A stretch of 12,050 nucleotides of DNA from Planctomycetales bacterium (GCA_037445915.1 JBBIJQ010000056.1:1-12050), one strand, 5' to 3'; positions 1-12,050 are shown, numbered from the stretch's first letter. The notes: generated by a model from the sequence alone, not told the origin. A program made the numbers and translations.

Positions 1-350
1 GTCGGGGGAGGCGCACCGCCCGCACCAGGGGGAATTGGTCCACTAGCACCGGGGGGAATTGCTCCACCAGCACCGGGGGGGATTGGTCCACCCATTCCTG
101 GAGCGGCAATCTGCTGGCCGCCTGGGTCAGGACTCCCGCCTGGAGCACCAGGCATCGGCGGAGCTTGCGTCGGAGGGGGAGTTTCCGTAACCGGCGCGGA
201 CGCGGTCGTTGCAGGGGCTAGGCCAGAAGATGGGATATCGCCTGTGCTTATCCCGCCTGAAAGCAGCATATAAGCGCCATAAACGACTCCCAGCACGATG
301 ACCGCTACTAGGGCGATCATCAAGTTTTTATTCATAGGCTGATTCTGCAT
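1..350 (-). CDS. Membrane-anchored Pro/Gly-rich protein, 3' end beyond the window; positional PilP/PilW/GspC-like alignment-complex subunit
   Basis: Not in the ORF track because it runs off the edge. ATG at 350-348 (alternative ATG at 335), with GGTGGT 5 nt upstream, 18 nt after the pilO stop. The frame is open to position 1: MQNQPMNKNLMIALVAVIVLGVVYGAYMLLSGGISTGDIPSSGLAPATTASAPVTETPPPTQAPPMPGAPGGSPDPGGQQIAAPGMGGPIPPGAGGAIPPGASGPIPPGAGGAPPP. One N-terminal TM helix, no lipobox Cys. The CDS is well supported; the function is inferred from position only. Confidence 0.8.
   Translation of the reverse strand, partial: MQNQPMNKNLMIALVAVIVLGVVYGAYMLLSGGISTGDIPSSGLAPATTASAPVTETPPPTQAPPMPGAPGGSPDPGGQQIAAPGMGGPIPPGAGGAIPPGASGPIPPGAGGAPPP
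21..92 (-). repeat. 3 x 24-bp in-frame tandem repeat encoding GGPIPPGA / GGAIPPGA / SGPIPPGA
   Basis: + strand units: 21-44 cgcaccagggggaattggtccact, 45-68 agcaccggggggaattgctccacc, 69-92 agcaccgggggggattggtccacc. Confidence 0.9.
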
Positions 351-368
351 CAGATACCACCGTCCCAA

Positions 369-1181
369 TCAGAGCTTACGGTCTTTGGGCATTCCCGGAG
401 GCGCTTCGCCTGCGGTAGTGCCTTCAGGATTGATGAAATAAACAGTGAAAATCATTTCGTACTTCGAGACTGTGCGGAATCCGTACTGGTTGTCGTCTCC
501 GCCAGTGTTGCGGAAAGCATGCACCGTCACAAAATAAGTTGAGTCGGTCTGCAAGTCCTTGACGAACCTCTTCAACTCCTCATAGGTCATCGTAAACTCG
601 GTTAGCGTGATGGTGAGGGGTGAGAGGAACTCGGGCATCTTGGTGCTGACTGTTCCATCGCCGGTGCCCTCGCCGATATACTCCCATGCAAATAGGTCTA
701 TCGCATCGGTAAGCGGGGGGAGGGTTTCAATAGGCGAGGCCGCGTAGGAAACCTTGAAAACTATTTCAGGCTCAATTTCAACTGTCGCGGTGTAGATGCC
801 GTGGCTCATCAGCACGTCAAGGAACCACTGCTCAAAAAAGTTCATCAGGTCTTCCTGTCCCTTGAGGAAGTATTTCTGCTCCTGCTGAAGTTTCTTGGTC
901 ATAATGGACTTTATCTGCTCCGCCTTGGGAAGCATTTCCGCCTTCTTCTGGTAAACCTCGTTTTGGCGCTTCTGCGCTTCAATCTGGCCGTTTACCGTAT
1001 CAATCTCCGCCGTTTTGGCGATGTAGATTGATTTCCAGAAAAAACCGATTGAAGCCAGGATAATTATCACCAGCACGATGCCGACATTTAGCGGAGTAAA
1101 GATTGGCGCCGCCGGCTTGCGGTCCACCGGGGCCTTGCCTTTCGCCGCTGGCTGGCCGGCCTGCTTACGTGTTGAGGACAT
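369..1181 (-). CDS. pilO: PilO/GspM-like inner-membrane alignment protein (270 aa)
   Basis: Basic N-terminal tail, single TM (NVGIVLVIIILASIGFFW), coiled coil, and a ferredoxin-like C-terminus with the PilO pattern (PLTITL..MTYEELKRFVKDLQ..YFVTVHAF..YEMIFTVY). Lies directly downstream of the PilN moiety and has a strong SD. Confidence 0.72.
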   Translation of the reverse strand: MSSTRKQAGQPAAKGKAPVDRKPAAPIFTPLNVGIVLVIIILASIGFFWKSIYIAKTAEIDTVNGQIEAQKRQNEVYQKKAEMLPKAEQIKSIMTKKLQQEQKYFLKGQEDLMNFFEQWFLDVLMSHGIYTATVEIEPEIVFKVSYAASPIETLPPLTDAIDLFAWEYIGEGTGDGTVSTKMPEFLSPLTITLTEFTMTYEELKRFVKDLQTDSTYFVTVHAFRNTGGDDNQYGFRTVSKYEMIFTVYFINPEGTTAGEAPPGMPKDRKL

Positions 1182-3156
1182 CCTTGGTTACCTCCTCAAG
1201 GGCGCTGAGGCTCTCAATAGCTTTTGGTTGGTTGAGCGCCGTGTCTTCAAGTTTGGTCGTTATATCGAAGGAGAACTTTATAGGGCTTTGGAACATATCC
1301 TGGCGCTGGAAATAATCCTCAATGCTACGGCCGGCGCGGATGCCCAGGCGCGGCATCTCAAAATCCAGCGGCATGCTCTCGCGGAACTTTTCATTTGAAA
1401 GCGCCTTGGAGCTGTCCCATTTCAAGCCCTTCTGCGGCATGATGCTGCGGCTCGCATTGGGGTTGTCGGGAGGCGGGATGCTTGGCGCATAGGGGTTCCT
1501 CATATCAGCGGTCAGCCCCATTCCGGCTGAGCCGCCACCGCCGCCGCCTGCTCCGATGCCGCCGCCGCCGGTAGCCATGCTCTCCGTCTCTTCCTTAACC
1601 GTAGTGCCAGTGAAGAACTTGGAGTTATCCAGGCTGATTGCGAACTGCATGATATCAACGCGGTCAACAGCCACGCCCTTCATCTCGATTTCGTTGGCAG
1701 AGGCGTCAAAGCTGATTTCTTCCAAATAGCACGTGTCAGGGATACGGTTGCCGACCTCGCTCATTATCGCAGGCCACATCAGCTGTGCTTTGACCAGCGA
1801 GTATATCTGGCCAAACTGGGGTTTCTTGGTGGAGATTTCGCTCTTGACCTGCTCAAACTTATCCGCGTTGGGCTTCCACTTGCTCTGCTCCGCCTGAGCC
1901 GCCTGAAGGTTGTTCTTCACTTCAGAAAGCTTGGTATCCAGCATCTTGTTCTGGTAGAACATGAACGCGCCGATAATGAGGAGCAGCACTACGCCGATCT
2001 TCAAGACGTTGAGCGCTTGCGCCCGGACATAGTATGTGGAAGGCAGCAGGTTGAACTCAACCTTTCCTTTGCGGAAGTAGTCAACGCAGAGGCCTGCGGA
2101 AACTACAAACTTCTCAGCGTGCGCATGAAGCACGTCCAGCGCATACACGCCCTGCTGGTATTGCACCAGCGAAGACAGCGAGACTTCTGCAACCTCAAGG
2201 CCGGTCTCGCGCTCAAGGTAAGCGCCGAGGTTCTTGAAGTTGCGGGTATTGCCGAAAACCATCAGCTTGCCTACGCGGTCTGTGCGGGCAGCCTGGGATT
2301 CGTAATAGCGGATTGAGCGGACCAGCTCGGTGACGAAGCTGGCGAATACCGCCATGACTGCCTCGCGCAGGCGGTTGTCCTCGGTTTGGTCAATCTCTTC
2401 TTCATTAACCATGAGATCAACCGGCTCGGCACGGAGATATTCCTCCGCCTCGCCGACGCCAACGCCGAGAAGCTGCGCGATTTTGCCAATTATGGTGTTG
2501 TAGCCAAGCTCAACCGAGCGCGCCATGCGGAACGAGCCGTCAAGGAAGAACGACAGCTCAGAAATGCTGTCGCGGATATCAACAACACCGACGGACTGCG
2601 TGTAGCCTTCAAGCTTTGCGCCAAGCAGGTTCCATGCGGCGAGGCTCGTAATCTTGATTCCGTAAGTCTCAATCCCTGCAAGCTGCAACATTTCCACCAT
2701 TGATTGGATAGTGGAAGAGCGGGTGGCGACAAGCAGGATTTCCTGCATCGCCTGGTTGCCGCCCTTGCGCTGCGGGAGGACGCGGTAGTCGTAAACCGTG
2801 TCACCCGGCGGGAAGGGAACGTATTGGTTGATTTGCAGGTTAATAGCCTGGCGGGTTTGCGGGGCGCCCATGCGCGGGAGTTCAATCACGCGCACGATGG
2901 CGGCCTTGCCGGAAAGCGAGACTATTGCGCGCTTAGCAGAGATGCCGTTAGTCTCAAGTACGTCCTTGAGCCTGGCGCTTAGCCCGCGCGCGTCCGCAAT
3001 TCTGCCCGCAGCGAAAAACTGCGGGCTCAAGTCGGCGATTGCAAACCTCTCAAGCACGTAGTCGTTTCCGTGCTTATTAAGGGCTGTAACCCTTAACTCG
3101 TTAGAGGTCAGGTCAATACCGATGTCAACCGGTTTTCCAACTGTCTTCTTAGCCAT
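1165..3156 (-). CDS. pilM: PilM-PilN fusion protein (663 aa; GspL-like architecture)
   Basis: The N-terminal ~360 aa are a PilM actin-like domain (IGIDL; AIIVRVIELP; QYVPFP; VYDY; ILLVAT; ELVRSIRYY). It is followed in frame by the PilN N-terminal motif FNLLP (2041-2055, cf. INLLP), a TM helix, a coiled coil and a PilN domain (WPAIMSEVGNRIPDTCYLEEI..IEMKGVA..IMQFAISLDNSKFF). SD AGAGGG lies 4 nt upstream of the ATG. Confidence 0.9.
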   Translation of the reverse strand: MAKKTVGKPVDIGIDLTSNELRVTALNKHGNDYVLERFAIADLSPQFFAAGRIADARGLSARLKDVLETNGISAKRAIVSLSGKAAIVRVIELPRMGAPQTRQAINLQINQYVPFPPGDTVYDYRVLPQRKGGNQAMQEILLVATRSSTIQSMVEMLQLAGIETYGIKITSLAAWNLLGAKLEGYTQSVGVVDIRDSISELSFFLDGSFRMARSVELGYNTIIGKIAQLLGVGVGEAEEYLRAEPVDLMVNEEEIDQTEDNRLREAVMAVFASFVTELVRSIRYYESQAARTDRVGKLMVFGNTRNFKNLGAYLERETGLEVAEVSLSSLVQYQQGVYALDVLHAHAEKFVVSAGLCVDYFRKGKVEFNLLPSTYYVRAQALNVLKIGVVLLLIIGAFMFYQNKMLDTKLSEVKNNLQAAQAEQSKWKPNADKFEQVKSEISTKKPQFGQIYSLVKAQLMWPAIMSEVGNRIPDTCYLEEISFDASANEIEMKGVAVDRVDIMQFAISLDNSKFFTGTTVKEETESMATGGGGIGAGGGGGGSAGMGLTADMRNPYAPSIPPPDNPNASRSIMPQKGLKWDSSKALSNEKFRESMPLDFEMPRLGIRAGRSIEDYFQRQDMFQSPIKFSFDITTKLEDTALNQPKAIESLSALEEVTKDVLNT
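1190..1197 (-). promoter_or_regulatory. Shine-Dalgarno for pilO, embedded in the last codons of pilMN
   Basis: Minus strand GAGGAGGT-AACCAAGG-ATG (8-nt spacer). pilMN and pilO overlap by 17 nt (1165-1181), consistent with translational coupling. Confidence 0.85.
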
Positions 3157-3195
3157 AGGTCCCTCTTTTTGCGAGATCCTTACGCTTCTTTAGAC

Positions 3196-3239
3196 TACGG
3201 TGAGGCGGCTCTGGTTGCATTAAGAGCCGCCTTTCCGTA
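3196..3239 (-). terminator. Intergenic stem-loop between pilQ and pilMN (terminator, attenuator or mRNA-stabilising hairpin)
   Basis: Perfect 10-bp inverted repeat AGGCGGCTCT (3203-3212) / AGAGCCGCCT (3223-3232) with a 10-nt loop, extended by TACGG/CCGTA. No U-tract follows on the coding strand. Confidence 0.55.
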
Positions 3240-3254
3240 AACAATTTTCTGTTA

Positions 3255-6200
3255 CTACTTATCGTCCACCAGGTTGACTGTCAGCGTGACGAACACGTAG
3301 CTGTTGTCCTCCGACTTGTCGTGGTGCTGGAAGAACTGGCCGACGAACGGCAAGTCGCTCAGGAAGGGCACACCGAAAATCTGGTCTGATAAGCCCTTGG
3401 TTTGGAGGCCGCCGAGAAGCGCGGTGGAGCCGTCGGTCAGACGGAAGTAAGTTGTCAGCGTAGTGTCGGTGGTGGGCTGGAAGGTTGCGTTGCCGTCAGG
3501 CGAGACCTGCTGCGGGCCGTCAAAGTTGCTGATGGAGAGGTCAACATACATCGTCATTCTGCCGAGGTCGTCAATCGCCACCGTGAAGTTGATGTCGGTG
3601 CCTACAGTCACCTCGTCAAAGGTGGACTGGCGGATGGCGTTGCCGTTCTGGTCAAATGCGATGGTTTGGCGGAAGTTACCGCGAGTGCGGTCAACAACCA
3701 GGCTTCCCGGAAAACCGTCAATGACGCAGATTTCGCTCTCGGTGATTACCTTGGCTTTGCGCTCGGTCACCAGCGCGTCAAACGCCGCCGAGTAGTTTTG
3801 CTGGAGCGCAACCGCGCCCTTGGGCAAGATGCTCATCGTGAAGCTTCCAGCATCATAGCTGGTCTGGATGCGGTCCTGGCCGAACGGCGCGGACATCGTA
3901 GCGTTCAACATGCCGTAAACCTTCTGCGGGTTTTCGGTAACCTGGTAAACGGTGATCTTGACCGCAGCCTGTTTGGGGGGCTTGTCAATCTTGCGGATGA
4001 TGGACTGGACAACGTCCAATGTCTCGCGCGTGCCGCGCATGACGACGAGGCCGCTCTTCGCTGTCGGGAGGGGAAGGCCGCCGCCAGTTCCGCCGCCGCC
4101 TTGACCGATACCACCGCCGCCGCCACCCTGGCCGCCACCGCCGCCAGGAGCGCCGCCGCCACCAGGAGCGCCGCCGCCGCCGCCGGGGCCGGTCTGCATC
4201 GGCTGCATTTCATTGCCGAAGTAACCGGCTGACATTGCAGCGCTGGCGTCAAAGTACGGGTTCATCGCAGCGTTAAAGTTGCGGTTGTTGTTGCCGCCGC
4301 CCTGGTTGTTATTGTTGCCGCCGCCCTGGCCAAAGTTGCCGCCGCCGCCGGTATTGCGGTAAACATACCAGCCGACATTCACGGAAGGTAGCAAGTCAAG
4401 GTTGAAAAGGATCTCATAGAGCTGGCCTGGGTCAGCGTAGTGGAGCTGGTAGAAATCTATCTCGTTGGCATTCTGGATTTCCTGCTCCTTGCGCTCGCGG
4501 CTCGTGATGAGGATGACCGGCTTGGCATAGGGGTCTTTTTCATCGCGGTAAATAATTTTCTCAAACTGGTGCGTCTGAAGGATAATGTCCAGCGCAGTGT
4601 CCCATGGGACATTCTCAAAGTTGCCGATGACGCTTCCAGGCTCTGTTATAAGCGCGTTGAACTGCGCCGCATCGCGGAAGCCGATGGGGCTGCCGCCTTC
4701 GCCGAACTGGAGCGGTTCAAGGACGCGGCGGTTCGCGACGCCGCCGATGGGCGGGTCGGTTATGTAGGGGTCAATGATAATGGAGATGCCGGCTATCTGT
4801 GACATCAGGTTAAGCACCTGGAAGATGGAGAAGCCTGTCGCGGCGTTAAGGTTGACCATCACGTCGGAGAGCTTGCCTTCAAACTCCTCAAAGCCCGGCA
4901 TTTGGTAATCGCCGGCAATGTCGCCCTCAACGGGCATCTTCGGGTAGTCCTGGTCGGGGTCAAGCCCTTCAAAGACTTCGTCAACCGATACGTCAGCATC
5001 CTCGGCGGGCATTTCTTCCTCGTAAGCCTCATCGCCTTCAGGAAGCTCGCCCGTTACATTTCCAACAGGCCTGAGCTTCGGCTGCCGCTTGACGATTTGC
5101 ATAGGTGAGAGCTTAAGGTCAAAACTGCTGCCGTTTATCGAGCCGGTCTGCGCAAAGCCAAACGCAGCTTCGTTGGCCATGGTGACGACAATGCGGGTGA
5201 AGCTCTCATCGCCAGCCATCAGCTCCGAAACTGCGAGGTAGCGCACAACCGAATCATTCTTAAACAGGTAGCTGGTAACCGCCGCGGAAGGCGGAAGGTT
5301 AACAACGACATTGTAGCCACGCGGGAACTCAATCGGGACGACGTGGGCAGTAGTAGGCTCGGAAGTACGGATGGTTAGCGCCATTGTTCCCGGATCGTAG
5401 TTCACGTAGGTTACAGCGCCACTAGCTGCTGGTTTAGCTGGAACTGCAAACGAAGCAGCAGGCTTCTCCGCAGCTGGCGCTGGGGTCGCTGCGATTGGAG
5501 CAGGAGCGGGCGCAGGCGCTGCCGGGGTCTCCGGCTGCGGGAGCAGGATGTTGCCGGCTTCAGGGAAAGAAACCGTCAGCGTCTTGCCGTCCTCGCTGAG
5601 CTTCGCGTCATACTTGATATTCATCGAGTTGAGGAAGCTGACAACGACCCTTGACGTGCGGACATCCGCGTCAGCCGCTGTGTAGGTGCGGACATCGCGA
5701 ATTGCACCGATGTTCTTCGCAACCAGCGCGTCAACCGATGAGCCAAGCCTCGCATCGCGCAAGACTATTTCCAGCGCAGGCGGGAACTTGGATTCGGTTA
5801 AGCTGTAGTCCAGCTTATCATCCCCACGAATGGTCAGCGCTTTGTTGCCATGGTCAAACGAGACCGCTGAAACAAGCTTGCCGACTGGAAGGGCAGGCTT
5901 CTCCGGCGCAGGCGCGGGCGCGGGGGCAGGCGCAGCCTCTATTGCTTTAGCGGGAGACGCAGCAGCTGGCGCAGTGCCCTTGAGCATCTCAGCAGTTAAA
6001 GTTCCACGCTCGGATAGAGGGTAGAAAACCTCAAGCACTAAGAGCCCTGAACGCGGGCTGGTCCAGCGGTACGCGTCATCTCCAACTTTGCCTTTGACAT
6101 CGAGATAAACGACCAAGACGACTGTGTCGGTATCACCGGCAACCAGAACGTTCTTGACCAGCGAAGTTCCCTTGACCATCGGGCTGACAGCCGTCAGTTC

Positions 6201-6428
6201 CGATGCCGGGAATTGCGCCTCAATGCGCGTTGGATAGAGCTTTACGACCGATTCGGGCGATACGTCCTTGGACATCTGAAAGACGACCAAGTCCCGATCA
6301 GCCAGAGCCTTAACCTCAACGCCCGTGATTTGGTTCAGCTTAGCCGCGAAAACGCCTTGCGTAAAGATAACCGAAAGCGCGAGCGCGATTACCGTGGCTC
6401 CGGTAAGCTTCTTGTTCCAGTGCATCAC
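3255..6428 (-). CDS. pilQ: Type IV pilus/T2SS outer-membrane secretin, PilQ-like (1057 aa), with three AMIN-like domains
   Basis: Sec signal peptide (..FTQGVFA|AK). Three beta-rich AMIN-like repeats separated by Pro/Ala linkers. N0 domain (FQVLNLMSQIAGISIIID..FENVPWDTALDIIL), N3/Secretin_N domain (FYQLHYAD..LVVMRGTRETLDVVQSIIRKIDKPPKQ) and secretin signature (DGSTALLGGL..GVPFLSDLPFVGQFF). Start GTG 6428 or ATG 6425; tandem stops TAG TAA. Confidence 0.93.
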   Translation of the reverse strand: MMHWNKKLTGATVIALALSVIFTQGVFAAKLNQITGVEVKALADRDLVVFQMSKDVSPESVVKLYPTRIEAQFPASELTAVSPMVKGTSLVKNVLVAGDTDTVVLVVYLDVKGKVGDDAYRWTSPRSGLLVLEVFYPLSERGTLTAEMLKGTAPAAASPAKAIEAAPAPAPAPAPEKPALPVGKLVSAVSFDHGNKALTIRGDDKLDYSLTESKFPPALEIVLRDARLGSSVDALVAKNIGAIRDVRTYTAADADVRTSRVVVSFLNSMNIKYDAKLSEDGKTLTVSFPEAGNILLPQPETPAAPAPAPAPIAATPAPAAEKPAASFAVPAKPAASGAVTYVNYDPGTMALTIRTSEPTTAHVVPIEFPRGYNVVVNLPPSAAVTSYLFKNDSVVRYLAVSELMAGDESFTRIVVTMANEAAFGFAQTGSINGSSFDLKLSPMQIVKRQPKLRPVGNVTGELPEGDEAYEEEMPAEDADVSVDEVFEGLDPDQDYPKMPVEGDIAGDYQMPGFEEFEGKLSDVMVNLNAATGFSIFQVLNLMSQIAGISIIIDPYITDPPIGGVANRRVLEPLQFGEGGSPIGFRDAAQFNALITEPGSVIGNFENVPWDTALDIILQTHQFEKIIYRDEKDPYAKPVILITSRERKEQEIQNANEIDFYQLHYADPGQLYEILFNLDLLPSVNVGWYVYRNTGGGGNFGQGGGNNNNQGGGNNNRNFNAAMNPYFDASAAMSAGYFGNEMQPMQTGPGGGGGAPGGGGAPGGGGGQGGGGGGIGQGGGGTGGGLPLPTAKSGLVVMRGTRETLDVVQSIIRKIDKPPKQAAVKITVYQVTENPQKVYGMLNATMSAPFGQDRIQTSYDAGSFTMSILPKGAVALQQNYSAAFDALVTERKAKVITESEICVIDGFPGSLVVDRTRGNFRQTIAFDQNGNAIRQSTFDEVTVGTDINFTVAIDDLGRMTMYVDLSISNFDGPQQVSPDGNATFQPTTDTTLTTYFRLTDGSTALLGGLQTKGLSDQIFGVPFLSDLPFVGQFFQHHDKSEDNSYVFVTLTVNLVDDK
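4078..4350 (-). repeat. Gly/Asn/Gln low-complexity repeat region inside the secretin N3 domain
   Basis: (GCC)n runs. Direct repeats ccaggagcgccgccgcc at 4144-4160 and 4162-4178 (18-nt period, GGGGAP) and ttgttgccgccgccctgg at 4288-4305 and 4312-4329 (24-nt period, QGGGNNN). Confidence 0.9.
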
Positions 6429-6442
6429 GGAGGTGACCTCCT
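6429..6442 (-). promoter_or_regulatory. pilQ Shine-Dalgarno, followed by its own complement
   Basis: Minus strand AGGAGGT-CACCTCC-GTG ATG. The 7-nt spacer is the anti-SD sequence. Confidence 0.85.
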
Positions 6443-6514
6443 ACACAGGTTTAGATACTACAAATGCACCAATGCACCAGCCGGTGCCCCTTCCTTATAC
6501 CTGGATCCCCGATA

Positions 6515-6548
6515 CCTGGCGAAGTCCTCATAGGAGAACTTCCCCAAG
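6515..6548 (-). promoter_or_regulatory. 5'-terminal stem-loop of the predicted pilQ leader
   Basis: Minus strand CUUGG-G-GAAGUUCUC-CUAU-GAGGACUUC-G-CCAGG. The G-U wobbles form only on the minus strand. It begins 2-3 nt after the predicted +1. Confidence 0.6.
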
Positions 6549-6556
6549 ACTGAAGG

Positions 6557-6585
6557 ATTCTAGGAAGTAATGCCGCAGTTGTCAA
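6557..6585 (-). promoter_or_regulatory. Sigma70-type promoter for the pilQ-pilMN-pilO operon
   Basis: TTGACA (6585-6580), 17-nt spacer, TAGAAT (6562-6557). Predicted +1 at about 6551-6550. Confidence 0.85.
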
Positions 6586-6606
6586 GGAAGCCCTAAGTTA
6601 AGCAGC

Positions 6607-6634
6607 GAGGGCCCGGCAATCAAGCCAGGCCCTC
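6607..6634 (-). terminator. GC-rich hairpin after the giant gene; probable intrinsic terminator
   Basis: Minus strand GAGGGCCUGGC-UUGAUU-GCCGGGCCCUC (11 bp; one U-G pair that would be a C-A mismatch on +), 31 nt after the TAG. Followed by a weak tail GCUGCUUAACUU. Confidence 0.65.
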
Positions 6635-6665
6635 TAGCTTGTTCAAGCTCTGTCTCTGCCGGGAG

Positions 6666-9600
6666 CTATGTGCCGCCTCCGGCGAAACTATCCGAGTAAA
6701 CCACTTCGTAAGCATTGCGGTTGCTCGTGCTGCTGTTCACAGCGGTTGGGTCGCGCCTTTGGGTGCGCATCTTCCCGAGGTCAAGCACCTGCTCAATGAC
6801 TCGGTCGCGTGAAATTTGGTCTGCAGCAACAGGCGTAGCCGACGCGCCGCCAGAGACGCTTACACCGCCGATGCCGGTCACGCGGAATGTATAGCTGCGG
6901 GTAGTGACATAGGGCGCGATGTCGTCAAGGTAGTTGGCGATTACCTTGTATTCATTGTTCAGCGAGTCCCAAATCTCCGCATAACGGAAGAGCGAGGGGC
7001 CACTTGGGGTGCGGATTTGCGTGGAGAAGCCGTTCCCGTCAACTTCAACATTGTCGCGGTTGCCGTCGCCGTTAGTGTCTTCCACATTGAACGTGCGCGG
7101 CTCGTCTTCCATCAAGTCTGCATACATCGCGTCGTTCATCACGCCAATGACTTTGAAGAGGTCAAACAGCGACTGGAACGGCGGGTTCGGGATGAAGGTG
7201 AATGCGGTTTCCCCGCCGCTGTATAGCAGCGCGATTCTGTCTCTTGCATCGGCTCGGGTTTCCCCGGCTTCGGCGTCATAAGTGAAATACTGCCTCGAGT
7301 CAAATCCGCGCCGTTCGTCAACGGCCATCGGGTCAAGGCCATTCAGCGTAGTGCTGTTGTCCAGCGTGTCGTTGAGATACTTGGCGTAGCTCTCGGCGGA
7401 CTCTGTCGAGAACCGCCCGCGCACTACTGCGATATCCGAGGTTGCATAGAACTGGAGTCTTGAATCGCCGCGGTCAAGGTTGTAGTAGATGCCCCGGAAG
7501 TTATCCCACGAGTTGCGAACATTGTTGTCGCCCTGGTCGGGCCATATGTCATCGCGCTGCCCCGGGTCGGGATAATCGTCGGAGCGCGGGTTCACGCCGT
7601 CCCACGGGCCAATGACCGGCAAGTGGTCGACTCTGATATCGCCGCTTGCATACGGGTCGATGCCTGCACCGTGGGTATATTCGTAGCCACCTGGAGTATT
7701 GGAAGTTTCAGGCTTGTATGCGTCGTAGTAAGCGTTGCGGTATTCAACTACCGCACGGGCAAGGGCGTTCGCCTCGCTGCGTGTAATGTATTCGTCGTTC
7801 TCGTAATCACGGTCGCCGCGGCTGTAGGTAGTGCCATCCTCCATGAAATACGCGCGGTGCTTGATGATTTTGCTAAACAGCGCAGCGAGGACTTCTTCGG
7901 ACGCAGTGTTGATGTTGACGCGGCCCATAGTATAGGTATCGTAGAAGTCAACCGGCGTGTTCGTCTGCGGGTCGCTCAGGTAGCTTAGGTCAAACATCGG
8001 CGCAGCCGCCGGGTCTTTCGCCGCCATGAATCCAGGCGAGAGGAAGCTCGGGTTCGGGTCAACCGTCAGCAGGTCGCCGAAGACCTGGACATCTGCTTCG
8101 CGCAAGCGGTATTCGTTAGTGTCCGAGTAAGGCCTGTAAAGCGGGTCAACCCAGATGCGCGCTGCATGCAGCGGCCTGCCGTCGCGGTCGCGGCGCACCT
8201 TCGGCGTCGTATCGCCGTAGGACTGAGGGGTCAGGTAGCCCGCAGCATATACTTGCTGCTGCGAAATTGCGAATTCACCGGAACCGTCAGTCGCTGTGAC
8301 GATGACATAGTAGTTGCCCGCGTAGGGGACATACAGGTATACCGGGTCGTAAACCTCGCCCACGTCGCCGTTCATCATTACCCCGTCGGCTCCGTATGGG
8401 TTGATGATGGTCGTGCGCGTGTCGCGGAACTGCATGTCAACCAGGCTGCCTTCGCTTGATATCAGCGCAATCGTCACGAAGTAGTCGGAACTCTGGTTGA
8501 ACAGCCCAGCAAGGTTGCTAGCCGGCCCGGAAGTGACGAGGTTGCCCAGGCTGCTGCCGCCGAATTTGCGGCCGCCTGCGATTGCGTAGTTCACCGCAAC
8601 GCGGAAGTTGTTCCATCCGCTTGACGGCGAAACGAGCGAAGTGATGTGCAGCGGAAGCCGCTCGCCGACAAGCACTTTCTGAGTGGCATTGGATGGGGAA
8701 GTTACGCTGTTGATTATGTCGCCGTTGGCGTCAATCACGTTGATGGTTGGATTTACTCCGTCCTCAGGGTCGTCATAGCGGCCATTGGCGGGCGACGATC
8801 GATCCATCCACACTCTCGTGTAAGCGTGCTCAAACGGTGTGTAGCGCCCCGATGTGGTCACGCTGGCTGTCAGGCCCGGCGCGTCGGGGTCGTTGTAGTT
8901 AATGGTGATGTTGTATGGCGGACGCCCGCCGTCAATATAGACGACGAACCGGACGCGCTCGTTAACCGCAACCGCAGGCGGCATCGCCATTAGCTGCGCG
9001 TTAAGCGGGGCTTCCTCTACTGTGATTGTGCGCGGCCTAGTCACGATGAAACTGCCCGCCGAATCAAACGCGGTCAGGACTATTCGGTATGTGCCGGAAA
9101 CGCTCCCAGCCAGCTCGTCCGCAGCATCGGTGGATGGCACGAACACCGGGTTAGGCGCGAAGTGCTGGTTTATATCGCTGAAGAATATCGGCGTGCCGCT
9201 ATCAACATGAATAATGTCCCAGCGGTAGTTGTAAGGCGAAGCGCCGCCGGTTACGAAAGACTCTAGGCTGAAGCCCTGTGTAGTCACTCCGGCGAGCGGG
9301 TCAATGAATGTGTCCGCGGCGAGCGGAAGCGGGCTGGACGAGCCTGCACCACGGTTTCCGCCGACGAACACGGCTTGCGAGTCAAAGGCGTAGGAAACCT
9401 CAGTTCCCGCAGGCGGGTTGTCGCGCACTAGCGCGGCTGCTGTGTAAACACCACGGTTGGCTTCAATGTTGACGCCTATGTCAATGAACTGGAACCACAC
9501 GCCGGGCAGGCTTGTCGGGTACGAGTTAATCGCGCCGGGGTTGAGAAGGTTTAAGCCGTTGGCGGCGGTAACCCTTGTGTGGGTCTGCGGGTTATAGAAC

Positions 9601-12050
9601 CCTTGGCCGCCAATTTCAAAGAAGCCGTCGGTATTGAGGTCGGCCCAGTACTGCATATCGCTGCCCTGGCCGTTGATGCCGGTCAGCGTAAAGATGGTGT
9701 TGCCAGGCGTGTTGGACAGGAGGTAAGGATTCTCCGTCGCGAGGTAGCCAGCCACGTTGTCCATCGGGTTAAGGCCGCTGGGGATATAGATTGTGTCGCT
9801 TGCTTGGATGGAGTTCGTTACACCTGTCGTGATGTCGTAGTCCTGGCCATAAACGGTCAGCGCGATGAGGTGGCCGGTATCATTGCCCAGCGTGGGCAGG
9901 CTCAAAGTGGATAGGACATTGCTCACGTCAACCGTGGGTAGCGGGGCCGGCATAGGCAGAGAAAAGCTCTGAGTGGACACGCTGTTGTCGTTGTAAGTGA
10001 CAAGAAGGTTGCCGGACACCCGCAGCGTGCCTCTGCTGTAACTGCCAACGGCGCCGTAGTTCCATCCAGCGAAGCCGTTGATATGGCTTGCATAAAGCTC
10101 TGTAGATATCTGCGAAACCGGGATGTTGTGAACTACGTCAGGCGTTCCTTCGCCGGTGAAGTCCCAGCTAAAGGTGACCGGAGCGTCCGGCATCCCGTCG
10201 CCGTTGGTGTCGCGGTCATCAACCTGAATGTTGGATACATTCGGGTTGGTTGTCGTGAAGTTGAAGCCTAGGTTCGCGTAGTACTTCACCGGCACGTTAG
10301 GGCTGACAAAGCGCCCGTCCGCGCTGATGGAAGAGCTTACGCTGAAGTTAACAGGCCCCGGCGTAACCCAAGTGCCTTGCGCGACGAAGGATGGGTCAAT
10401 CTGGTAACGCTGCCATGGGTTGGCGTTGTTAGAAAGGCGCACATAGAAAGTGCCGGCCGGGACGTCAAGTGCCGTGCCAACTATGGCCGCCCAATCGTTC
10501 TGCCGGATGGTTGCCGTGGAAATCGGCGCGAGCGCCGCGTTATAAAGCGTCGCATAGACTTCCTCGCCAGGCCCTGTGTCTATCGCTTGGATGAGCAAGT
10601 TAAGAGTGCCAGTAGCCGTCGTTGTAAGAACATACCAATCTAAGGGGTCTGTGCTTTGGCGGACACGGCCGGTGAATGGGAATGCGTCGCGGTCTGGATC
10701 GTAGTCAATCGGCATCACATTGGCTGTTGCGCTCGTATCATTAGGCTCCGCCTCCCAGAAAGTGTTGCCCGGATTCGGCGAGTAGGTCGCTTCAAGCTCG
10801 TAAGTCTGCGCGCTGTTGCCGCTGATGCGGACGTAGTAGGTTCCAGCAGGAGAGTTGCGGTCAGTCGTCGCAAACGTGCTATTGCCGCCGGCGACGATCT
10901 GGCTGGTGTCTATAAGCGTCATTGCCTGGTTGAAAAGATCAATCCGCAGCTGGTTAGTGCCTGTGATGGTAAAACACTGAAGCAGCATGCTCATGCAGCC
11001 GGCCTGCGGGAAGTCCAGCCGGTACCAGTCAACATCCGCTGCGTTAGAAGTGCGGCCTGTCCGGGTAGCGCCGTCTGTGAACGGGTCGTAGTCAACCGGC
11101 ATAATGTTAGCGGTTGCGCTAGTGTTATTAGGCTCGGTCTCCCAGAATGTAGGTTGCGCCGGCGGAGGGGCGCTGGTTAGCAGCGCGTAGCGCCCGTTGC
11201 CGTCAACATTCCACCGATACTTCAAGCCGTATGCGGATGTTATGCCGCCCGTGTAGGAGCGGACATCAAGCCCCATGCCGGGCAGCGGGTAGCGGTCGGA
11301 ATACATCGGCTGGAGACTCACATTCATCCCGTAAGCGTTAGCCGTGTTATTCGCGCTGTCCATTAACGGGCGAAGGTCGCGGATCTGGATTAGCTGGTGG
11401 GAAACGGCAACCTTATTGTTGCGCAGGTCTGTAACAATCAGCGTCGCATTATAGTTGCCAAAGCCGTCGTTGGCGTAATCATACTGGAGGGAGGGCATCT
11501 GCTGGTAGCTGATGATGCCAGGCGAGCCGCTCATGCGCGTGGTGTCCGCGCGGGCGTCAATAATGCCGTCGCCCTGGAAGTCCACTTCCATCCGGTAGTT
11601 ATGCGTGATGTCCGGGATAACGGAAGCAATCGCGTCAAACGAGACTAGGAAGTGCGTCTGAAAGAGCGCCCGGCCGCTAACGCCGCCGTTGCCGCCGTCA
11701 AGAGTCTTGACTGTAAGCCACCCTGTTCGCGCGTCAGCAGGAACTACGACGCTCATAATCTGGCGCGCCGGCGCAGGCCCGGTGTAGCTTGGGTCTAGGA
11801 TTGGCGGATTGGTCGGCGAAGTCGTCGCGCCGCCGCCGAAGGTAACAAAGTTGTGATGCGGGTGCGGATCAAAGTTGTAGCCATAAATCTGGATGGTTGA
11901 GCCTGCGCCTGCAACCTCGGGGACAATCGGAGGAACGCCCGGGGCTGTGCTAAGGCGGGGCTGCGGGCCTGAACCTGTGATTAGCGGTATATGGCTGTTG
12001 TCGGCAATTGAATCTTTGCCGTTGCCCGGAGGAATCGCAGCCAGGGTCGC
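6666..12050 (-). CDS. Giant (>=1794 aa, 5'-truncated) secreted multidomain protein: IPT/TIG, PKD-like and 2x PPC-like modules plus a GspK-like pseudopilin C-terminus
   Basis: The frame of the 1696-aa ORF stays open from 11756 to 12050 (ATLAAIPPGNGKDSIADNSHIPLITGSGPQPRLSTAPGVPPIVPEVAGAGSTIQIYGYNFDPHPHHNFVTFGGG..QIMSVVVP), so the true start is outside the window. IPT motif; PKD-type motifs (GGASPYNYRW..GTYRIVLTAFDSAG; GNYNATLIVTD); two EPN-type PPC modules; C-terminal GRVNINTASEEVLAAL..ALARAVVEYR..PFQSLFDL..PYVTTRSYTFRVTG..RVIEQVLDL. Confidence 0.85.
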   Translation of the reverse strand, partial: ATLAAIPPGNGKDSIADNSHIPLITGSGPQPRLSTAPGVPPIVPEVAGAGSTIQIYGYNFDPHPHHNFVTFGGGATTSPTNPPILDPSYTGPAPARQIMSVVVPADARTGWLTVKTLDGGNGGVSGRALFQTHFLVSFDAIASVIPDITHNYRMEVDFQGDGIIDARADTTRMSGSPGIISYQQMPSLQYDYANDGFGNYNATLIVTDLRNNKVAVSHQLIQIRDLRPLMDSANNTANAYGMNVSLQPMYSDRYPLPGMGLDVRSYTGGITSAYGLKYRWNVDGNGRYALLTSAPPPAQPTFWETEPNNTSATANIMPVDYDPFTDGATRTGRTSNAADVDWYRLDFPQAGCMSMLLQCFTITGTNQLRIDLFNQAMTLIDTSQIVAGGNSTFATTDRNSPAGTYYVRISGNSAQTYELEATYSPNPGNTFWEAEPNDTSATANVMPIDYDPDRDAFPFTGRVRQSTDPLDWYVLTTTATGTLNLLIQAIDTGPGEEVYATLYNAALAPISTATIRQNDWAAIVGTALDVPAGTFYVRLSNNANPWQRYQIDPSFVAQGTWVTPGPVNFSVSSSISADGRFVSPNVPVKYYANLGFNFTTTNPNVSNIQVDDRDTNGDGMPDAPVTFSWDFTGEGTPDVVHNIPVSQISTELYASHINGFAGWNYGAVGSYSRGTLRVSGNLLVTYNDNSVSTQSFSLPMPAPLPTVDVSNVLSTLSLPTLGNDTGHLIALTVYGQDYDITTGVTNSIQASDTIYIPSGLNPMDNVAGYLATENPYLLSNTPGNTIFTLTGINGQGSDMQYWADLNTDGFFEIGGQGFYNPQTHTRVTAANGLNLLNPGAINSYPTSLPGVWFQFIDIGVNIEANRGVYTAAALVRDNPPAGTEVSYAFDSQAVFVGGNRGAGSSSPLPLAADTFIDPLAGVTTQGFSLESFVTGGASPYNYRWDIIHVDSGTPIFFSDINQHFAPNPVFVPSTDAADELAGSVSGTYRIVLTAFDSAGSFIVTRPRTITVEEAPLNAQLMAMPPAVAVNERVRFVVYIDGGRPPYNITINYNDPDAPGLTASVTTSGRYTPFEHAYTRVWMDRSSPANGRYDDPEDGVNPTINVIDANGDIINSVTSPSNATQKVLVGERLPLHITSLVSPSSGWNNFRVAVNYAIAGGRKFGGSSLGNLVTSGPASNLAGLFNQSSDYFVTIALISSEGSLVDMQFRDTRTTIINPYGADGVMMNGDVGEVYDPVYLYVPYAGNYYVIVTATDGSGEFAISQQQVYAAGYLTPQSYGDTTPKVRRDRDGRPLHAARIWVDPLYRPYSDTNEYRLREADVQVFGDLLTVDPNPSFLSPGFMAAKDPAAAPMFDLSYLSDPQTNTPVDFYDTYTMGRVNINTASEEVLAALFSKIIKHRAYFMEDGTTYSRGDRDYENDEYITRSEANALARAVVEYRNAYYDAYKPETSNTPGGYEYTHGAGIDPYASGDIRVDHLPVIGPWDGVNPRSDDYPDPGQRDDIWPDQGDNNVRNSWDNFRGIYYNLDRGDSRLQFYATSDIAVVRGRFSTESAESYAKYLNDTLDNSTTLNGLDPMAVDERRGFDSRQYFTYDAEAGETRADARDRIALLYSGGETAFTFIPNPPFQSLFDLFKVIGVMNDAMYADLMEDEPRTFNVEDTNGDGNRDNVEVDGNGFSTQIRTPSGPSLFRYAEIWDSLNNEYKVIANYLDDIAPYVTTRSYTFRVTGIGGVSVSGGASATPVAADQISRDRVIEQVLDLGKMRTQRRDPTAVNSSTSNRNAYEVVYSDSFAGGGT
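10380..11147 (-). repeat. Tandem duplicated ~129-aa PPC-like (pre-peptidase C-terminal type) module
   Basis: FWETEPNNTSATANIMPVDYDP..GR..DVDWYRL..PAGTYYVRIS starts at 11147 and FWEAEPNDTSATANVMPIDYDP..GR..PLDWYVL..PAGTFYVRLS starts at 10760 (387-nt period). DNA similarity is still visible at the unit starts. Confidence 0.85.

Follow-up and report, generated by a model that had tools for sequence, protein, structure and literature searches.

Type IVa pilus (T4aP)-like systems are diverse, polyphyletic and often unclassifiable by standard models, according to the available text of PMC6668835. In the available part of PMC10191384, HIJK minor pilins, including a tip cap that lacks Glu5, are described for both T4aPs and type II secretion systems (T2SSs), and adhesive modules are reported to be grafted onto pilins in some species. 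Here we analyzed a stretch of 12,050 nucleotides (nt) from a Planctomycetales bacterium (GCA_037445915.1 JBBIJQ010000056.1:1-12050), called the window hereafter, which encodes a secretin, PilM fused to PilN, a PilO homolog, a protein in the position of PilP and a giant K-type minor pilin. An earlier note on this DNA had described a mosaic of T4aP and T2SS parts fitting neither class. We consider it reasonably probable that the window specifies the scaffold that spans the envelope, together with the tip-priming pilin, in a T4aP-like machine from an uncultured diderm lineage. The components with measurable sequence affinity, namely PilM, PilN, PilO and the PilQ-type domains, all point to T4aP.

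Gene layout and conservation of the locus

The window contains five genes, all on the minus strand, with intact reading frames, and we judged them to be real. The gene of the giant pilin (6666-12050) is open at its 5' end and encodes the C-terminal 1794 amino acids (aa) of a protein of at least that length. It is followed by the genes of the secretin (3255-6428; 1057 aa) and of the PilM-PilN fusion (1165-3156; 663 aa), both recognized from their open reading frames (ORFs) and domain matches, and by that of the PilO homolog (369-1181; 270 aa), recognized from its ORF and a family profile and overlapping the fusion gene by 17 nt. Only the start of the PilP-position gene is included (frame 3-368, with a likely ATG at 348-350 giving 116 aa), its 3' end lying outside the window. 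The gap between the giant and the secretin genes measures 237 nt and the one between the secretin and the fusion genes 98 nt. The G+C content is even across the window (0.53-0.60), and an Rfam search of the window gave no family match.

To place this gene set, we scanned one genome per species for related loci, obtained 29 and scored their synteny by tblastn. The gene order was kept in up to 28 of them. Indeed, the secretin gene lies directly upstream of the fusion gene in 28/29 loci, the 29th having just 166 nt of upstream sequence, and a PilO-like gene lies downstream of the fusion in 27/29, the remaining two loci ending there. A homolog of the PilP-position protein was found in 22/29 loci and the C-terminus of the giant gene in 18/29, with 10 of the 11 misses falling at contig ends. 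The exception is L020, which has no giant gene upstream and in which the secretin is present as two ORFs (L020:3600-6593), one of 605 aa without Pfam match and one of 315 aa with the barrel. The locus proteins split into two deep clades that are only about 30% identical to each other. Since the order is kept across clades this distant, the genes represent a conserved system and no chance juxtaposition. Secretin, PilM-PilN fusion, PilO homolog and K-type minor pilin are thus held in one conserved locus, and the possibility raised in the earlier note that the GspK-like gene belongs to a separate system did not hold.

Fifteen of the 29 loci are labeled Planctomycetales, Planctomycetia or Planctomycetota and three "UBP7", the others being named "bacterium." Among the candidates scored, the 663-aa fusion has 83 relatives at E <= 0.001, of which 75 are 611-724 aa long. 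One cluster of relatives, 84% identical, is named Candidatus Riflebacteria bacterium RBG_13_59_9, and the available part of PMC7509429 contains nothing on pili in the Riflebacteria lineage. The source lineage is uncultured and little studied.

A natural PilM-PilN fusion

On the minus strand, the fusion gene encodes a PilM actin-like domain (2083-3129), an FNLLP motif (2041-2055), a transmembrane helix (1945-2013), the periplasmic part of PilN (1582-1944), and a Gly-rich linker with a conserved extra C-terminal region (1168-1581). The family PilM_2 (PF11104) matched aa 13-358, corresponding to model positions 1-337 of 340, and the pilM model TIGR01175 gave 154.5 bits against a cut-off of 133. 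This is in good agreement with the full-length PilM fold proposed in the earlier note and identifies the first part of the chain as PilM. Similarly, PilN (PF05137) matched aa 464-524 with 29.6 bits (cut-off 22.8), identifying the following part as PilN even though it is fused. Between them, FNLLP at aa 368-372 is the INLLP-type motif that had been noticed before, and its L370 and P372 are invariant in 23 sequences. The Gly-rich linker (aa 530-547) precedes a region of about 115 aa that is conserved in both clades and has no family match.

A fusion profile derived from 23 family members retrieved eight distinct PDB sequences at E <= 0.01. These included PilM of Myxococcus xanthus (3jc8; E 1.5e-35), Thermus thermophilus (2ych; 2.5e-28) and Pseudomonas aeruginosa (5eou; 2.5e-27) as well as PilN of M. 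xanthus (3jc8; E 4.7e-10), whose residues 3-143 aligned with profile positions 365-506. Two FtsA chains and one chance match were also retrieved, and there was no GspL chain among the eight sequences. Hence, of the GspL-like M-N chain postulated earlier, the fusion stands and the affinity to GspL does not. As the PilN alignment starts at profile position 365, the PilN part begins a few residues past the end of the PilM fold. Furthermore, 5eou, which according to its deposited name is an engineered PilM-PilN chimera, aligned over profile positions 7-371. A C-terminal PilN segment on PilM is therefore structurally tolerated, and by its alignment the natural fusion resembles this construct. None of the papers retrieved by our literature searches describes a natural PilM-PilN fusion.

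The three actin-fold nucleotide motifs read DLTS, DIRD and FGN in this family, as opposed to DIGS/EIGA, DIGA/NAGA and GGG/SGG in solved PilMs. We take them to be the phosphate-1, phosphate-2 and adenosine motifs. T17, D193 and R195 are invariant in the 23 fusion sequences. At the level of the motifs, the ATP site is eroded, as had been suggested, and the PilM domain has probably lost nucleotide binding. GspL is likewise not known to bind nucleotides.

A secretin with PilQ-type domain order

On the basis of an AlphaFold2 (AF2) model and of profiles, the secretin is laid out, on the minus strand, as a signal/anchor helix, three beta domains (6018-6341, 5562-5885, and 5097-5420), an N0 domain (4539-4871), an N domain with a Gly-rich loop inside (3933-4469) and the barrel (3258-3881). 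The barrel matched PF00263 at aa 885-1054 (E 7.5e-23), and Pfam gave a single, partial Secretin_N match at aa 788-820. One Secretin_N match was likewise found in the PilQ-type reference, compared with three in each of the GspD-type references P0127 and P0131. Pfam did not call AMIN in the window secretin; in its relatives, AMIN (5/17, best E 0.001) and STN (7/17, best E 0.0095) stayed under the cut-off. We compared the secretin domains with 18 PilQ-architecture proteins profile against profile (hhalign). Beta domain 2 (aa 182-289) matched the first PilQ AMIN region with 91.9% probability (E 7e-7), and beta domain 3 (aa 337-444) was found to be a repeat of domain 2 (98.1%, E 7e-14). The comparison was not significant for beta domain 1. 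N0 matched the STN region of PilQ (96.5%, E 8e-10).

The NCBIfam models for SctC, MshL, PilQ, and GspD all gave 57-62 bits, far under their cut-offs, and with 57.3 bits on TIGR02517 (cut-off 351) the protein does not qualify as a GspD of N0-N1-N2-N3 order. Since it carries AMIN-type and STN/N0 regions and one instead of three Secretin_N matches, its domain order is PilQ-like. Judged from these matches, the architecture is that of PilQ and not of GspD, in line with the AMIN-containing PilQ with N0 and one N domain of the earlier note. In the AF2 model, built on 38 sequences, the mean predicted local distance difference test (pLDDT) score was 65.1 and the domains were resolved: beta domains at aa 32-135, 184-287, and 339-442, an N0-like domain at aa 524-627, two N-domain halves at aa 656-689 and 793-830, and the barrel. 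A Foldseek search with this model gave 41 PDB matches at E <= 0.001, and those listed were all secretins.

We then built a quick, unrooted maximum-likelihood tree from 63 C-terminal halves selected among 120 matches, the rest being omitted. It comprised the window secretin and 13 family members, 21 GspD-architecture, 19 PilQ-architecture, and 9 other sequences, the named PilQ references being taxonomically narrow (Xanthomonas, Luteimonas, and generic Proteobacteria records). The family formed one clade (Shimodaira-Hasegawa-like approximate likelihood ratio test, 99) distinct from the PilQ clade (100) and from the sequences of GspD architecture. This confirms that the secretins are a divergent branch outside the sampled PilQ and GspD-architecture proteins; the tree shows separateness and not origin. 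In the sequence search, the E value falls from 1e-39 to 3.7e-17 at the best match outside the family.

About a dozen clusters of proteins of around 590 aa (P0113-P0126) share the first beta domain of the secretin, N0, and the first half of the N domain, end before the barrel and have no Pfam domain. One of them, P0117, is 50% identical to secretin aa 492-690 over 202 aa. They may represent a barrel-less paralog or gene calls broken at the Gly-rich coding repeat.

A Gly-rich loop in the N domain of the secretin

Residues 690-790 (4059-4361, minus strand) form an insertion that splits this domain and is predicted to be disordered. The loop contains 42 Gly in 101 residues (42%), compared with 6-7% Gly in the remaining secretin, and the pLDDT was below 50 throughout, which bears out the long Gly-rich loop seen in the earlier note. 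It was present in 38/38 family secretins, with a length of 86-129 aa (median 103.5) and a Gly content of 42-63%, in clades that share only about 27% identity. A short conserved motif lies in the middle of the loop, where Q745 is invariant. The disordered N3-domain loops of f1 pIV point into the pore, and the N3 loop of InvG is extended, according to the available text of a preprint (10.1101/2021.07.20.453082). By analogy, the Gly-rich loop may face the lumen of the secretin. None of the papers retrieved by our literature search describes a Gly-rich secretin N3 loop.

The PilO homolog and the PilP-position protein

The 270-aa protein consists of a short cytoplasmic tail, a transmembrane helix, a coiled coil and a C-terminal domain. 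It had no direct match in Pfam, NCBIfam or PDB, and a PDB search with the family profile gave unrelated weak matches. This profile, made from 22 members, retrieved 60 proteins at E <= 0.001 from 1.84 billion representatives. Thirty weaker proteins were scanned: 16 carried PilO (PF04350) above the cut-off, 6 only T2SSM or T2SSM_b, mostly weakly, and 8 nothing. Additionally, an Atlas search pointed to PilO and T2SSM clusters at 0.92-0.93, which we regard as leads. These profile matches support the assignment of the 270-aa protein as a PilO homolog, in line with the earlier note.

The PilP-position protein starts with a hydrophobic anchor followed by a Pro/Gly-rich linker, and there is no Cys in its 122-aa frame. 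Its full-length orthologs (280-363 aa) extend further, with conservation in an Arg-x-Asp-Pro motif and in a second segment and with a beta-rich domain at the C-terminus. A lipobox-like Cys stands after the hydrophobic stretch in two of the loci (L007 and L013), so that the type of anchor varies in the family. The claim of an anchored non-lipoprotein in the PilP position therefore applies to the window and not to the whole family. An Atlas search with the C-terminus gave a best match at 0.85 without family, and T2SSC and T2SSB clusters at 0.78 as a lead only. Its equation with PilP is positional, being based on position and topology.

Gly- or Pro/Gly-rich low complexity recurs in four periplasmic parts encoded by the locus, namely the secretin loop (4059-4361), the linker of the fusion (1516-1569), the linker of the PilP-position protein (3-250), and a C-terminal tail of PilO that occurs in the distant clade only (L022-L029).

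A giant K-type minor pilin

The window covers most of an insert and the C-terminal part of the giant protein. The conserved C-terminal K-pilin part (6669-7925, minus strand) includes a helix-hairpin-helix (7887-7925), another conserved motif (7158-7190) and C-terminal strands (6879-6905). T2SSK matched a 17-residue helix-hairpin-helix of the window protein with an E value of 0.0035 and also 12 of 15 family members (best E 0.00042), always below the cut-off. A search with the C-terminal 555 aa retrieved 19 longer relatives. Among these, P0204 (2703 aa) was 99% identical over the queried region and P0205-P0212 were 55-84% identical; eight relatives other than P0204 are full-length orthologs of 2838-3109 aa, and one ortholog cluster is named GspK by NCBI. 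In twelve of the 19, the N-terminus is made of a short leader and a Gly followed by a hydrophobic helix in which Ala or Val occupies the position of Glu5, and one additional ortholog starts inside the prepilin-like helix. Toward their N termini, orthologs matched NF037980 (T2SS_GspK) near aa 400-518 (E 4e-7, about 30 bits against a cut-off of 130) and T2SSK_1st near aa 470-513, and toward their C termini T2SSK near aa 2682-2699, all below cut-off. Because the N- and C-terminal matches are this far apart, an insert of about 2150 aa seems to interrupt the GspK-like domain. Overall, these matches suggest that the giant is a K-type (GspK/PilK/PilX-class) minor pilin of about 3100 aa in full length, GspK-like but by the cut-offs no member of that family.

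The GspK-type tip pilin of the earlier note thus finds support in the N termini of the orthologs and in the split GspK matches, the T2SSK match in the window itself being weak. As K-type pilins are common to T4aP and T2SS, such a gene is no T2SS marker, and this part of the claim falls.

The insert contains two tandem domains of about 129 aa (10383-11159, minus strand; BLASTP, 39% identity over 126 aa, E 4e-29). Pfam found nothing significant in four pieces of the insert (PPC, E 1.1), and orthologs gave weak matches to PKD, TIG, and PD40. A profile of the giant C-terminus retrieved only unrelated weak matches from PDB.

In L027, the gene upstream of the giant encodes a canonical prepilin N-terminus including Glu5; minor pilin genes therefore precede the giant. 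This upstream gene shows a frame break between the prepilin N-terminus and the remainder (L027:1-1550), which could be an assembly error or a real frameshift.

Transcription signals and neighboring genes

A sigma-70-type promoter-like site with 11 of 12 consensus positions lies at 6557-6585 on the minus strand, in the 237-nt gap before the secretin gene. The corresponding gap of 14 related loci contained the same pattern. The genes of the secretin, the fusion, PilO and the PilP-position protein thus probably form a transcription unit that is separate from the minor-pilin genes. In the gap between the secretin and the fusion genes (window 3157-3254), there is a GC-rich hairpin of 9 bp that lacks a T run; it may be a processing or stabilizing element or a weak attenuator.

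Just past the left end of the window, the PilP-position gene is followed by a lone gene for a NuoN-like membrane protein (L004:13748-15355 and equivalents), with 344.6 bits on TIGR01770 (cut-off 332.6). It was found in 20/29 loci of both deep clades, and only L021 has space for it yet lacks it. We considered this neighbor as a part of the machine and dropped it, as it has its own consensus promoter in three distant-clade loci (L023, L027, and L029). It is followed in 16 loci, all of the nearer clade, by a gene of 620-700 aa of the O-antigen-ligase-like Wzy_C type (L004:15385-17247 and equivalents), whose product is a candidate that could glycosylate pilins. The only further pilin-like gene near the loci encodes a 370-aa N_methyl protein, in L010 and L013.

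Class of the machine

In the T4aP-like machine that we favor, the cytoplasmic PilM would be joined covalently, via an FNLLP segment of its own and a single transmembrane helix, to the periplasmic part of PilN, and the PilM domain would probably work without nucleotide binding. The periplasmic PilN part would pair with PilO, and the proline-rich PilP-position protein would bridge the PilN-PilO pair and the N0 domain of the secretin, which its AMIN-type domains would anchor to the cell wall. The K-type pilin of about 3100 aa, devoid of Glu5, would cap the filament and carry at its tip grafted domains that add up to about 2150 aa and are probably adhesive; in doing so, it would replace a separate tip adhesin of the PilY1 type. 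The genes of the motor ATPases, platform protein and major pilin would lie elsewhere in the genome.

Several observations weigh against this interpretation. Two traits, namely the fused M-N chain and the lost phosphate-loop glycines, resemble the T2SS. In the tree, the secretin groups neither with the PilQ nor with the GspD references, and Foldseek scored secretins of type III secretion systems, T2SSs, type IVb pili, and T4aPs alike and gives no class. The PilP-position protein matched no family and no PilP model, and its family search in PDB returned only unrelated weak matches. The GspK models stayed under every curated cut-off (PF21687, 17-24 against 26.2 bits; PF03934, 17-20.5 against 24.2 bits), the AF2 model of the C-terminal 560 aa of the giant was too poor to use (mean pLDDT 39.7), and, as none of the domain matches of the insert within the window is significant, the word "adhesive" is a guess drawn from the weak PKD, TIG, and PD40 matches of orthologs. 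Finally, neither the window nor 67 flanking ORFs from 14 loci included a T2SSE-type ATPase, a T2SSF-type platform, a major pilin family or a prepilin peptidase, and no ATPase or platform gene was found within 10 kb in the loci examined; the type of filament is therefore unproven.

A rival reading, which the earlier note had raised as a possibility, is a secretion machine resembling the T2SS that evolved from T4aP parts separately from the proteobacterial T2SS. In this machine, a short, K-primed periplasmic pseudopilus would push folded proteins through the secretin. According to the available text of Denise et al. 2019 (PMC6668835), the T2SS itself derives from T4aP and many systems are unclassified, "generic" ones. 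As in GspL/PulL (available part of PMC10191384), M and N form one chain here, the glycines of DIGS, DIGA and GGG in solved PilMs are replaced in DLTS, DIRD and FGN, and no PilY1-like gene was seen in the loci. However, the fusion profile retrieved PilM and PilN and, at E <= 0.01, no GspL chain, and the secretin has PilQ-type order with AMIN-type domains and one N domain, as opposed to three Secretin_N matches in the GspD-type references. Moreover, a periplasmic pseudopilus would have difficulty accommodating a tip pilin of about 3100 aa, K-type pilins also occur outside the T2SS, and we identified no candidate substrate genes. Altogether, we regard the secretion machine as improbable. The mosaic on which it builds rests mainly on the K-type pilin and is partly supported: the M-N fusion and the lost PilM glycines speak for it, and the K-type pilin shared by both systems, the domain order of PilQ and the affinity to PilM and PilN speak against it. 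As to a change of function to secretion, our data point in neither direction.

No more probable, in our opinion, is a pilus-like machine that serves mainly uptake in place of adhesion or motility, either a DNA-uptake (competence) pilus or a device capturing macromolecules as proposed for the Akkermansia Amuc_1098-1102 locus. The fusion does match the Amuc_1101 PilM-like family (E 5.7e-30) over aa 58-474, past PilM into the membrane and coiled-coil part, and the secretin matches the Amuc_1098 family (E 4.2e-9), but these scores are far under the cut-offs (104.7 against 650 and 35 against 750 bits, respectively). In the available part of PMC13174399, amuc_1101 is described as a PilM protein whose locus is linked to the use of mucin. 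Orthologs of the giant match the ComEA-type HHH_3 (P0211, 28.1 bits, cut-off 27); however, helix-hairpin-helix motifs belong to the ordinary GspK fold and say little on DNA binding, and the flanking ORFs scanned included no ComEA, ComEC or glycan-use genes. The degenerate nucleotide motifs of PilM and the several family assignments below cut-off might also suggest a decayed or inactive remnant whose odd features result from erosion. We find this extremely improbable, given that all five reading frames are intact, that the gene order is kept in up to 28/29 loci across clades about 30% identical, that the replacing residues T17 and R195 are invariant in 23 sequences, that the length and composition of the loop are kept in 38/38 secretins, and that the promoter is conserved in 14 loci.

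Returning to the T4aP-like machine, the locus has three derived features, the M-N fusion with its degenerate nucleotide site, the Gly-rich loop of the secretin and the giant modular cap pilin, and only the first of them is T2SS-like. A bolder and rather unlikely idea is that this lineage rebuilt the T4aP scaffold around disordered Gly-rich segments and covalent links, with a mesh of loops, a nucleotide-free PilM-PilN and a cap pilin replacing PilY1. Secretins form multimers of 12 to 15 subunits, a number that we assume here from other secretins. If the idea were true, the loops of such a multimer, together more than 1000 residues, would form a flexible mesh throughout the periplasmic vestibule, and this mesh could act as a gel-like seal or as a selectivity filter around the filament. 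Likewise, motor and scaffold would be coupled through a PilM-PilN chain free of nucleotide, a solution resembling GspL but reached independently.

Comparison with known systems

Nothing in the locus overturns current views. It represents a natural experiment on how a T4aP scaffold can be rewired, with PilM joined end to end to PilN and a nucleotide site that has apparently been abandoned. The fusion bears on how GspL may have arisen from PilM and PilN, and two further peculiarities, the Gly-rich loop of the secretin and the giant modular cap pilin, are concrete and open to testing.

The PilMNOPQ machinery of T4aPs (M. xanthus 3jc8, T. thermophilus 2ych, and P. aeruginosa 5eou/5eox) provides the closest solved relatives of the PilM and PilN parts and shares with the locus the homology of PilO, the PilQ order of AMIN-type, N0, and single N domains, and the gene order Q, M, N, O, P-position. 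Unlike in these systems, M and N are here one chain with an extra C-terminal region of about 135 aa and replaced nucleotide-binding glycines in PilM, the secretin gene comes first and its product carries a Gly-rich loop of about 100 aa, and the P-position protein has no match to the PilP model.

The resemblance to the T2SS lies in a single chain that runs from the cytoplasm to the periplasm, as described for GspL in the available part of PMC10191384, in a K-type tip pilin without Glu5 as in GspK, and in a membrane-anchored protein in the C/P position as in GspC, which in the window is no lipoprotein. In particular, the parallel between GspL and the M-N fusion with its lost nucleotide-binding glycines is supported. 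However, the fusion has no sequence match to solved GspL, the secretin differs from GspD in having AMIN-type domains and lacking three Secretin_N matches, and the pilin scores about 30 bits on a GspK model with a cut-off of 130 and is about 10 times as long as the 307 positions of that model.

The Akkermansia proteins Amuc_1098 and Amuc_1101 (NF042912 and NF045709) offer a PilM-like protein longer than PilM (608-position model) beside a secretin. Since the Amuc family scores are far below the cut-offs, which for the fusion means 104.7 against 650 bits on NF045709, fusion and secretin are no members of these families, and no Amuc_1099- or Amuc_1100-like genes were identified here. Finally, the modular pilins PilB and PilC of Streptococcus sanguinis, as presented in the available part of PMC10191384, are also pilins with grafted domains in a tip complex. 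In contrast to them, the carrier here would be the K-type cap pilin of a diderm system, and the insert of about 2150 aa lies between two helix-hairpin-helix parts of a GspK-like domain.

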